15,670 bases of DNA from the IMG/VR virus record IMGVR_UViG_2693429623_000009, one strand, 5' to 3'. The stretch is from a virus. Taxonomy: Duplodnaviria > Heunggongvirae > Uroviricota > Caudoviricetes. The notes beneath the pieces are model-generated. The model saw nothing but the letters and a program-made list of their open reading frames with translations. It made no database searches and was not told the origin of the DNA. Made by a program: the position numbers and the translations under genes. This document shows positions 10,098 through 15,427 of this stretch, in pieces. Each line of letters opens with the position of its first letter. Position 1 is the stretch's first letter.

Positions 10098-13000
10098 ATG
10101 GGAAAAGGTGGCGGTAAGGCACACACGCCTCGTGAGGCGAAGGATAATCTCAAATCCACGCAGATGATGAGCGTGATTGATGCGATTGGTGAGGGACTGA
10201 TAGAAGGTCCGGTGAAGGGACTGCAGAGTATCCTGGTGAACAAAACCCCGCTGACGGACACGGACGGTAATCCCGTGATACACGGTGTGACGGCGGTCTG
10301 ACGCGCCGGGGAGCAGGAGCAGACACCACCGGAAGGCTTTGAGTCCTCCGGTGCTGAAACCGGACTGGGCGTGGAAGTGACGAAGGCAAAACCGGTGACG
10401 CGCACCATTACGTCCGCGAACATTGACCGCCTGCGGGTTACCTTCGGGGTGCAGTCACTGGTGCAGACCACGTCAAAGGGTGACCGAAACCCGACATCCG
10501 TCCGCCTGCTGATTCAGTTACAGCGTAACGGTAACTGGGTGACAGAAAAGGATGTCACCATTAACGGCAAGACCACCTCGCAGTTTCTGGCGTCGGTGAT
10601 TCTGGATAATCTGCCTCCCCGTCCTTTTAACATCCGGATGGTCCGGGAGACAGCGGACAGCACCACGGACCAGCTGCAGAATAAGACGCTGTGGTCGTCA
10701 TACACCGAAATCATCGATGTGAAACAGTGCTACCCGAACACGGCCATTGTGGGGCTGCAGGTGGATGCGGAGCAGTTCGGCGGCCAGCAGATGACGGTGA
10801 ACTACCATATCCGCGGTCGCATCATCCAGGTGCCGTCAAACTATGACCCGGAAAAACGCACGTACAGTGGTATCTGGGACGGCAGCCTGAAACCGGCATA
10901 CAGCAACAATCCGGCCTGGTGTCTGTGGGACATGCTGACTCACCCGCGCTACGGCATGGGAAAACGTCTGGGGGCGGCGGATGTGGACAAGTGGGCGCTG
11001 TATGCCATCGGGCAGTACTGCGACCAGACGGTCCCGGATAGTTTCGGGGAGACCGAGCCGCGGATGACCTTCAATGCGTACCTGGCACAACAGCGTAAGG
11101 CATGGGACGTGCTCAGTGATTTCTGCTCGGCGATGCGCTGTATGCCGGTATGGAACGGCCAGACGCTGACGTTTGTTCAGGACCGCCCGTCGGATGTGGT
11201 GTGGCCGTACACCAACAGCGATGTGGTGGTGGATGATAACGGCGTGGGTTTCCGCTACAGCTTCAGTGCCCTGAAGGACCGGCACACGGCGGTGGAGGTG
11301 AATTATACCGACCCGCAGAACGGCTGGCAGACCTCCACGGAACTGGTGGAAGACCCGGAAGCCATACTGCGCTACGGACGCAACCTGCTGAAGATGGACG
11401 CGTTCGGCTGTACCAGCCGCGGTCAGGCCCACCGTGCCGGACTGTGGGTGATAAAGACCGAACTGCTGGAAACGCAGACGGTGGATTTCACGCTCGGGTC
11501 TCAGGGGCTGCGGCACACACCCGGTGACATCATTGAAATCTGTGATAACGACTATGCCGGGACCCTGACCGGCGGACGTGTCCTGTCCATTGATGCTGCC
11601 ACCCGCACTCTGACGCTGGACCGTGAAGTGACACTTCCGGAGACCGGTGCCGCCACGGTGAACCTGATTAACGGCAGCGGTAAGCCGGTGAGTGTGGACA
11701 TCACCGAACACCCCGCGCCGGACCGGATACAGGTCAGTACCCTGCCTGATGGTGTGGAGACATACGGGGTGTGGGGACTCTCCCTGCCGTCACTGCGCCG
11801 TCGCCTGTTCCGCTGTGTCTCCGTCCGGGAAAACACGGACGGCACCTTTGCCATCACGGCGGTGCAGCACGTACTGGAAAAAGAAGCCATCGTGGATAAC
11901 GGTGCCCGCTTTGAGCCGCAGTCAGGTTCCCTGAACAGCGTCATCCCACCGGCAGTGCAGCACCTGACGGCCAGTATCTGGCGCAGGCGAAATGGGACAC
12001 GCCGCGGGTGGTGAAGGGTGTGCGCTTCAGTCTGCGCCTGACCAGTGGTAAGGGAACGGATGCCAGACTGGTGACCACCGCCATCACCGCAGACACGGAG
12101 CACCGTTTCAGCGGCCTGCCGCTCGGGGAATACACCCTGACGGTGCGGGCGATAAACNGCCATCGTGGATAACGGGGCGCACTTTGACGGCGACCAGAGC
12201 GGCACGGTGAATGGTGTCACGCCGCCAGCGGTGCAGCACCTGACTGCCGAAGTCACCGCAGACAGCGGGGAATATCAGGTGCTGGCGCGCTGGGACACGC
12301 CGAAGGTGGTGAAGGGCGTGAGCTTCCTGCTCCGTCTGACCGTAACAGCGGACGACGGCAGTGAGCGGCTGGTCAGCACGGCCCGGACGACGGAAACCAC
12401 TTACCGCTTCACACAACTGGCGCTGGGGAACTACAGGCTGACAGTCCGGGCAGTAAATGCGTGGGGGCAGCAGGGCGATCCGGCGTCGGTATCGTTCCGG
12501 ATTGCCGCACCGGCAGCGCTGTCGCGGATTGAGCTGACGCCGGGCTATTTTCAGATAACCGCCACGCCGCATCTTGCGGTTTATGATCCGACGGTACAGT
12601 TTGAGTTCTGGTTCTCGGAAAAGCGGATTGCGGATATCAGGCAGGTTGAAACCACAGCACGCTATCTTGGCACGGCGCTGTACTGGATAGCCGCCAGTAT
12701 CAATATCAAACCGGGCCATGATTATTANGCTGTATGCCATCGGGCAGTACTGCGACCAGACGGTCCCGGATAGTTTCGGGGAGACCGAGCCGCGGATGAC
12801 CTTCAATGCGTACCTGGCACAACAGCGTAAGGCATGGGACGTGCTCAGTGATTTCTGCTCGGCGATGCGCTGTATGCCGGTATGGAACGGCCAGACGCTG
12901 ACGTTTGTTCAGGACCGCCCGTCGGATGTGGTGTGGCCGTACACCAACAGCGATGTGGTGGTGGATGATAACGGCGTGGGTTTCCGCTACAGCTTCAGTG

Positions 13001-15427
13001 CCCTGAAGGACCGGCACACGGCGGTGGAGGTGAATTATACCGACCCGCAGAACGGCTGGCAGACCTCCACGGAACTGGTGGAAGACCCGGAAGCCATACT
13101 GCGCTACGGACGCAACCTGCTGAAGATGGACGCGTTCGGCTGTACCAGCCGCGGTCAGGCCCACCGTGCCGGACTGTGGGTGATAAAGACCGAACTGCTG
13201 GAAACGCAGACGGTGGATTTCACGCTCGGGTCTCAGGGGCTGCGGCACACACCCGGTGACATCATTGAAATCTGTGATAACGACTATGCCGGGACCCTGA
13301 CCGGCGGACGTGTCCTGTCCATTGATGCTGCCACCCGCACTCTGACGCTGGACCGTGAAGTGACACTTCCGGAGACCGGTGCCGCCACGGTGAACCTGAT
13401 TAACGGCAGCGGTAAGCCGGTGAGTGTGGACATCACCGAACACCCCGCGCCGGACCGGATACAGGTCAGTACCCTGCCTGATGGTGTGGAGACATACGGG
13501 GTGTGGGGACTCTCCCTGCCGTCACTGCGCCGTCGCCTGTTCCGCTGTGTCTCCGTCCGGGAAAACACGGACGGCACCTTTGCCATCACGGCGGTGCAGC
13601 ACGTACTGGAAAAAGAAGCCATCGTGGATAACGGTGCCCGCTTTGAGCCGCAGTCAGGTTCCCTGAACAGCGTCATCCCACCGGCAGTGCAGCACCTGAC
13701 GGCCAGTATCTGGCGCAGGCGAAATGGGACACGCCGCGGGTGGTGAAGGGTGTGCGCTTCAGTCTGCGCCTGACCAGTGGTAAGGGAACGGATGCCAGAC
13801 TGGTGACCACCGCCATCACCGCAGACACGGAGCACCGTTTCAGCGGCCTGCCGCTCGGGGAATACACCCTGACGGTGCGGGCGATAAACAGCTATGGCCA
13901 GCAGGGTGAACCTGCCACCACCACCTTCCGGATTGCCGCACCGGCAGCACCGTCGCGGATTGAGCTGACGCCGGGCTATTTTCAGATAACCGCCACGCCG
14001 CATCTTGCGGTTTATGATCCGACGGTACAGTTTGAGTTCTGGTTCTCGGAAAAGCGGATTGCGGATATCAGGCAGGTTGAAACCACAGCACGCTATCTTG
14101 GCACGGCGCTGTACTGGATAGCCGCCAGTATCAATATCAAACCGGGCCATGATTATTATTTTTACGTTCGCAGTGTGAACACCGTTGGCAAATCGGCATT
14201 CGTGGAGGCTGTTGGTCAGCCGAGTGATGATGCATCCGGTTATCTGGATTTTTTCAAAGGCGAGATAGGGAAAACCCATCTGGCTCAGGAGCTGTGGACG
14301 CAGATTGATAACGGTCAGCTTGCGCCGGACCTGGCTGAAATCAGGACGTCCATTACGAATGTCAGCAATGAAATCACGCAGACCGTCAATAAGAAACTGG
14401 AAGACCAGAGTGCGNNNNNNNNNNNNNNNNNNNNNATAACGGTCAGCTTGCGCCTGACCTGGCTGAAATCAGGACGTCCATTACGGATGTCAGCAATGAA
14501 ATCACGCAGACCGTCAATAAGAAACTGGAAGACCAGAGTGCGGCAATTCAGCAGATACAGAAGGTTCAGGTTGATACAAATAATAACCTGAACAGCATGT
14601 GGGCTGTGAAGCTGCAGCAGATGCAGGACGGACGCCTTTATATCGCGGGTATTGGTGCCGGTATTGAGAACACCCCTGACGGCATGCAGAGTCAGGTGCT
14701 GCTGGCGGCGGACAGGATTGCGATGGTTAATCCTGCGAATGGCAACACAAAACCGATGTTTGTTGGTCAGGGCGATCAGATATTCATGAACGACGTGTTC
14801 CTGAAACGCCTGACGGCCCCCACCATTACCAGCGGTGGAAATCCATCGGCATTTTCCCTGACTCCGGACGGAAAGCTGACCGCTAAAAATGCGGATATCA
14901 GTGGCAGTGTGAATGCGAACGCCGGGACGCTCAACAATGTCACGGTAAATGAAAACTGTACGATTAAGGGCATGCTGGAGGCGACTCAGGTCAGAGGTGA
15001 CTTCGTTAAAGCTGTATCCAAATCATTTCCGAAACAGGCTGGTACGTGGGGTAACACGGAAACACCAAACGGGACGGTTACAGTCACCATAAGCGATGAT
15101 CATAACTTTGACCGCCAGATTATTATTCCGCCCATTATTTTTAACGGTATAGCGTATGACGATCCGGGGAGCGGAAATAACCCAGGAGGCACGCGATACA
15201 CGGGTTATGGTTTTGAAGTTCGCAAAAACGGCGTATTAATCGCATCCAGAGAAACTAAAGGTGCCATTCCCGGTAGTTACAGTGCAGTTATTGATATGCC
15301 TAGTGGTGGTGGTAGCGTCACTCTGGAGTTTAAGATTTTCCAGAAAGGCAATCAGGGGGCAGGCAATATCACCGACTGTACGGTGATTGTGACCAAAAAA
15401 GCGGCTTCCGGCATCAGTATTCGTTGA
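10098..15427 (+). CDS. J: Central tail fibre / host-specificity protein J (lambda gpJ homologue), disrupted and partly duplicated as assembled
   Basis: ATG at 10098 with an AGGGGAAGG RBS ([22 protein letters not shown]..., lambda J-like). There is an in-frame TGA at 10299-10301, a 22-nt deletion frameshift near 11973, an N at 12158, a lambda-like patch at 12159-12727, an N at 12728, an exact duplicate of 10997-12157 at 12729-13889, and an N run at 14415-14435 flanked by a 107-bp direct repeat. The C-terminal frame (14597-15427) ends ...[14 protein letters not shown] then TGA at 15425-15427. Confidence 0.8.
12159..12727 (+). other. Lambda-like alternative-allele segment of J bounded by single N bases (12158 and 12728)
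   Basis: It encodes ...[72 protein letters not shown]...KPGHDY, which matches lambda J as I recall it and is paralogous to 11884 onward and 13616-14158 of the backbone allele. Confidence 0.75.
12729..13889 (+). repeat. Exact 1161-bp direct duplicate of J region 10997-12157
   Basis: Identical sequence at offset 1732. The duplicated six-frame ORFs have identical translations. Confidence 0.9.
14415..14435. other. Assembly gap (21 N) inside J, flanked by a direct repeat
   Basis: 14308-14414 matches 14436-14542 (107 bp, 2 mismatches) on either side of the N run. Confidence 0.95.

Follow-up and report, generated by a model that had tools for sequence, protein, structure and literature searches.

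The 15,670-nt window analysed here, the whole of IMG/VR virus record IMGVR_UViG_2693429623_000009 (Caudoviricetes), carries lambda-type tail genes, and its gene J contains an exact direct repeat of 1161 nt, designated X in this paper. Comparison with related sequences indicates, with a probability of about 0.95, that the duplication is most likely an artefact of scaffold construction, in which overlapping contigs were written out unmerged, and not a real feature of a phage or prophage. The two copies of X end exactly at single N characters, relatives of the same backbone carry one copy in contiguous sequence, the inner junctions were not found elsewhere, and the same type of stacking recurs both in another gene of the window and in other assemblies.

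Exact repeat and single-N joints in gene J

Direct self-comparison of the window confirmed the repeat reported in the first-pass annotation: positions 10997-12157 recur at 12729-13889 over 1161 nt with 0 mismatches, and the identity extends 0 nt beyond either end. A repeat of this length and exactness cannot have arisen by chance. A single N stands at 12158 and another at 12728, and the right end of copy 1 and the left end of copy 2 are each flush with one of them. Repeat copies ending exactly at N placeholders are what a scaffold-join artefact should show. For randomly placed repeat ends, the probability of both inner ends of X touching any of the 7 N blocks in the window is about 2e-7. The period from one copy to the next is 1732 nt, which is not divisible by 3.

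Between the copies lies a piece of 569 nt, called B here, and the sequences to its left and right are called A and C (Table 1). A second exact direct repeat, of 207 nt, links B and C: the 3' end of B (12521-12727) is identical to 13952-14158 inside C. The right end of B is located immediately 5' of a cluster of variants at 14159-14168.

Division of the window into eight pieces

The 7 N blocks, at 3997, 5199, 6049-6125 (77 N), 7228, 12158, 12728 and 14415-14435 (21 N), divide the window into 8 pieces. Four of these make up one backbone prophage: 1-3996, 6126-7227, 7229-12157 (A) and 12729-14414 (C). Of the non-backbone pieces, 3998-5198 and 5200-6048 belong to gene H, B (12159-12727) lies in J, and D (14436-15670) covers the C-terminus of J; these represent other alleles, lambda-like in the central part. 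Apart from the joints at 12158 and 12728 there are five N sites, and repeats span all five except 7228. At the 21-N run, the flanks 14308-14414 and 14436-14542 share a 107-nt overlap that is mismatched at 2 positions (14327 and 14358), so the 21 N at 14415-14435 do not stand for missing sequence. The run lengths of 21 and 77 are also common k-mer sizes of assemblers, which may be a coincidence.

Table 1. Pieces, joints and repeat copies across gene J (window coordinates)
Feature	Position	Strand	Content
Piece A	7229-12157	+	Backbone genes M, L, K and I, then J from its start at 10098 for two thirds of its length; FNIII-A_GpJ, Phage-tail_3
X copy 1	10997-12157	+	3' end of piece A
A/B joint	12158	.	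Single N
Piece B	12159-12727 (569 nt)	+	Central J fragment of a second, lambda-like allele; Ig_J and part of Ig_J_second
B/C joint	12728	.	Single N
X copy 2	12729-13889	+	5' end of piece C
Piece C	12729-14414	+	Back-step of 1161 nt in J, then onward; Phage-tail_3 again, Ig_J, Ig_J_second
C/D gap	14415-14435	.	21 N between overlapping flanks
Piece D	14436-15670	+	C-terminal part of J (Phage_Tail_Tip, Ig_GpJ_C; stop codon 15425-15427) and downstream sequence

Mapping of the pieces onto contiguous relatives

The pieces were mapped onto phage ASU11 (L001), lambda (L002) and 90+51 IMG/VR contigs sharing exact 61-mers with the window, as well as onto finished chromosomes encoding the same K protein, including CP179952.1 (L124). 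On ASU11, A reaches as far as 14479, B occupies 14186-14748, C occupies 13297-15003 and D starts at 14898. From these positions it can be seen that J is tiled with overlaps and back-steps.

The backbone itself was recovered almost unchanged in IMG/VR contig L082, where its four pieces match at 99.9, 100, 99.9 and 98.7% identity (467-4462, 4475-5576, 5587-10515 and 9355-11040, respectively). Piece A differs from L082 by 3 substitutions and no indels (99.94%). In the finished chromosome L124 the same pieces are collinear at 99.4, 99.9, 99.1 and 97.0%, with A at 6797-11747, and A is 95% identical to phage ASU11. The backbone is contiguous and collinear in all three of ASU11, L082 and L124, and X occurs once in each; in L082 and L124, the copy of X that ends A and the copy that begins C correspond to a single stretch. 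Overlapping and collinear piece coordinates on contiguous, single-copy relatives are what unmerged contigs should produce. The counterpart of X in L124 spans 1183 nt, as a 22-nt deletion found in the window is not present there. When 10900-14400 (3501 nt) is used as query, it collapses to approximately 1791 nt in those complete E. coli genomes that match best. X itself is matched in complete genomes at no more than 97.2% identity, and the top matches listed each span 1183 nt, likewise without the deletion.

Piece C contains 1 difference from L082 inside X copy 2, and the remaining 21 differences all occur from 13994 onward. From 13969 on, C is approximately 100% identical to IMG/VR contig L091. 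The switch from backbone-like to lambda-like sequence at about 13969-13993 may be either a natural mosaic of J or an assembly chimera.

Piece B had been described in the first-pass annotation as a near-lambda allele of the same J region as the repeat. The allele assignment holds: B differs from lambda J DNA by 24 substitutions without indels (96%), its protein is 97% identical to lambda J at aa 597-785, and many IMG/VR contigs match it at 99.8% (e.g. L091 1384-1952). The extent of the homology had to be narrowed, as the allelic counterpart of B in the backbone comprises only the final ~293 nt of X and the ~269 nt after copy 2, and B is 75% identical to it overall. Piece D is 100% identical to IMG/VR contig L048 and 99.8% identical to L091 2102-3336. 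Because the counterparts of B and D are 149 nt apart in L091, the two pieces belong to one allele. A contiguous lambda-like J also exists in E. coli JAATUR010000020.1 (L003).

The exactness of the repeat and the single copy in relatives also bear on whether X could be a template and variable pair, or a silent cassette, of a diversity-generating system varying the tail-tip protein. Receptor-binding tail genes are generally known as targets of such systems, but all 1161 nt agree between the two copies, with no adenine-specific or other differences. Moreover, X covers the conserved Phage-tail_3 core instead of the C-terminal receptor-binding domain, the neighbouring genes are ordinary lambda tail genes, and the second copy does not exist in relatives. 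A template/variable repeat pair was rejected on the grounds of the exact identity and the lack of a second copy in relatives, and a system of this kind as a whole can be regarded as having a negligible likelihood.

Same stacking in gene H and in other assemblies

The tape-measure gene H (window 2717-7398) displays the same stacking as J and is drawn out to 4.68 kb, versus approximately 2.57 kb. Two lambda-like contigs, 3998-5198 and 5200-6048, together with the 77 N, occupy the place of only 12 nt (GCTGAATAAGGC) in L082 and L124. These two pieces are mutually 95.7-99.1% identical over their overlap, and because they differ from each other, at least 3 H alleles must be represented in the source. 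At 7228, the N replaces 10 nt (CGGGCGGAAG) present in both L082 and L124, i.e. a small real gap was written as one N.

Among the fetched sequences, 9 of 9 with N (8 IMG/VR loci and the window) contain direct repeats of ≥100 nt and ≥90% identity lying across or flush with an N. Of the 112 N-free loci, only 3 contain any repeat of this size and identity (Fisher p ~2e-11). The layout of contig L016 is identical to that of the window: an exact 669-nt repeat (29-697 and 1904-2572) is bounded by N698 and N1903, with another J allele between the copies. Contig L048 contains a 2402-nt repeat of 98.8% identity on either side of one N, and three or four J alleles are stacked at single-N joints in each of L016, L048 and L049. 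Single-N joints with stacked J alleles are a feature of the isolate-draft IMG/VR contigs L016, L048, L049, L061, L069, L082 and L108. The pattern in J therefore recurs within the window, in gene H and at the gap at 14415, and in 8 of 8 N-containing IMG/VR loci.

Reading frames, domains and alleles of gene J

The identity of the gene as a lambda-type J is given by its gpJ Pfam domains and its position between I and lom. As in lambda gpJ, the domains are FNIII-A_GpJ, Phage-tail_3, Ig_J, Ig_J_second, Phage_Tail_Tip and Ig_GpJ_C, and the synteny of the tail genes is shared as well. A single intact ORF of ~1130-1230 aa, as a lambda-type J should have, was not found. When read as one molecule (10098-15427, 5330 nt), J falls into six reading-frame pieces in frames 3, 2, 3, 1, 3 and 2. 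The Pfam domains appear in the order FNIII-A_GpJ and Phage-tail_3; Ig_J and partial Ig_J_second; Phage-tail_3; Ig_J and Ig_J_second; Phage_Tail_Tip and Ig_GpJ_C. Phage-tail_3 and Ig_J are thus present in full twice, and Ig_J_second once partially and once in full. Finished genomes have one J ORF of 1157-1230 aa with every domain once.

The backbone J carries two lesions, both of which are common to L082; neither occurs in ASU11 or L124. The first changes TGG to TGA at codon 68 (10299-10301), which is Trp in ASU11 J; in L124 the sequence context of this TGA does not occur. The second is the 22-nt deletion, which relative to ASU11 lies at 11964 (with its copy at 13696), between CTGACGG microhomologies, and shifts the frame. 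Owing to the premature TGA and the frameshifting deletion, the J of the backbone prophage is a pseudogene, and in these lesions it differs from lambda gpJ. Its protein is also closer to ASU11 J (97% identity over aa 1-627) than to lambda J (~76%).

The second allele is close to lambda only in its central part. Its C-terminal receptor-binding part (14436-15427) shares 96% identity with ASU11 J but only ~51% with lambda J. Because the centre is 96-97% lambda-like and the C-terminal part only ~51%, this near-lambda allele is itself a mosaic. Judged by this divergence in sequence, it probably does not share the receptor specificity of lambda.

Junction search and the possibility of a real duplication

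Both outer junctions of X (left flank to X and X to right flank) are contiguous in L082. The inner junctions, A to B and B to C, are absent from all 120 fetched loci when joined directly. When any one base was allowed in place of N, there were 0 matches in IMG/VR, in scans that cover only sequences with a real base at the N position. A genuine tandem duplication should have a junction in unambiguous bases that is reproducible in relatives, and no such junction was found. In addition, the end of A and the start of B are 59% identical in alignment, which provides no homology to support recombination at this join.

These results bear directly on whether part of J could really have been duplicated in tandem through unequal recombination between co-resident lambdoid prophages, with the Ns as incidental low-quality calls. 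Lambdoid J genes are mosaic and recombine, and the change of type in piece C near 13969-13993 would suit such a history. Since the backbone J was already a pseudogene, there would also be no selection against a disruptive rearrangement. These points are outweighed by the position of both novel junctions exactly at N, by the absence of the inner junctions from related loci and IMG/VR, by the missing homology at the A/B join, and by the single copy in both the 99.9% relative L082 and the finished L124. Incidental low-quality calls would also leave the same N-bounded stacking in H and in unrelated assemblies without explanation. A real duplication of this kind is very improbable. The corresponding picture of a defective prophage, whose J pseudogene carries two Phage-tail_3 cores around a lambda-type Ig_J cassette, is equally hard to credit.

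Proposed origin of the artefact

Under the favoured explanation, an artefact of scaffold construction, several lambdoid prophages would have been present in the source genome or sample, their tail genes identical in some parts and divergent in others. In short-read assembly such tail genes would break into contigs sharing end sequence, and a scaffolder would then string contigs of different prophages into one line by estimated position. Where neighbours were estimated to be gapless and yet could not be merged, a placeholder N would be written. Contig B, with the other J allele, would have landed between A and C, which for this reason would never have been merged, leaving X present twice. In complete E. 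coli genomes the median number of J-homologous places is 2-3 per genome, with up to 15, and multi-prophage repeats are therefore to be expected.

The type of software and the cause of each contig end are what we infer from this pattern. Related behaviour is documented for scaffolders: ALLPATHS-LG gives negative gap sizes for overlapping contigs, and SOAPdenovo2 often inserts gaps between overlapping contigs (PMC5368935). The scaffolder literature consulted describes overlap and gap behaviour in general, and contained no link of the single N to one tool. As in other short-read scaffolds with unmerged overlapping contigs, overlapping neighbours in the window are written serially with N, creating false direct repeats flush with N. 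In contrast to that situation, A and C are separated by a contig of a paralogous prophage allele, and their overlap goes far beyond a k-mer. The window also resembles E. coli drafts in which multi-copy lambdoid prophage genes are fragmented and mis-joined: H and J exist in several near-identical or mosaic copies, and breaks occur where the alleles diverge. Here no unusual difference is seen; the window is simply a dense case, with seven joints in 15.7 kb.

Several observations fit this origin less well. The exact overlap of 1161 nt far exceeds a k-mer overlap, and would therefore require an assembler that outputs contigs as paths through a common repeat edge. Piece A stops at 12157, though L082 and C remain identical for another 104 nt. 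Contig ends at points of allele divergence would account for the right end of B, but not obviously for the right end of A. Finally, the runs of 21 N and 77 N flank overlapping instead of gapped sequence; thus either the gap estimates were wrong or these Ns have another origin.

The same artefact might also have been reached by another route, a reference-guided pseudomolecule in which contigs were ordered by mapping to a phage or genome used as reference and then strung together with N. The pieces are indeed ordered by end coordinate on a lambdoid reference, and contigs of different prophages are piled on one locus, as happens when paralogues map to one reference position. On the other side, N runs of 1, 21 and 77 suggest estimated gaps and not a fixed spacer, and the many IMG isolate records with the same single-N style suggest a production assembly pipeline, but neither point is decisive. 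This route is considered possible, though unlikely.

The first-pass annotation had read the layout as an assembly bubble written out in line, in the order A, B and A again. An assembly product is supported by the single-copy relatives, the inner junctions not found, the broken frame and the recurrence. The form of a clean bubble is not, and three overlapping contigs describe the structure better.

Other features of the window

The synteny of the window is Z-U-V-G-T-H-M-L-K-I-J(-lom), and this gene order, shared with annotated phages, accounts for its genes as tail genes. The heptamer GGGAAAG occurs at 2272-2278, shortly before the G ORF (1865-2296) ends and a T-like ORF (2323-2736) begins. In lambda, the heptamer for the programmed -1 frameshift of G/T has this position; taken alone, the motif is not more frequent than by chance (1 versus 2.4 expected).

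Significance of the stacked tail genes

Taken at face value, the record would yield a "J" of 5330 nt and an "H" of 4.68 kb, compared to true sizes of ~3.5 kb and ~2.57 kb. It would also yield false repeats, false gene fusions and fragments, and chimeric host-range alleles. Because several isolate-draft IMG/VR contigs share the artefact, tail-gene repeats flush with a single N should be filtered out before screens for repeats, diversity-generating retroelements (DGRs) or recombination. The value of the observation is data hygiene only.

The biological message is an ordinary one. The coexistence of two or more lambdoid J alleles, also proposed in the first-pass annotation, is borne out: the source contains an ASU11-like backbone allele and an allele with a lambda-like centre. 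At least 2 alleles of J and at least 3 of H mean that several lambdoid prophages, or a mixture of strains, were present.

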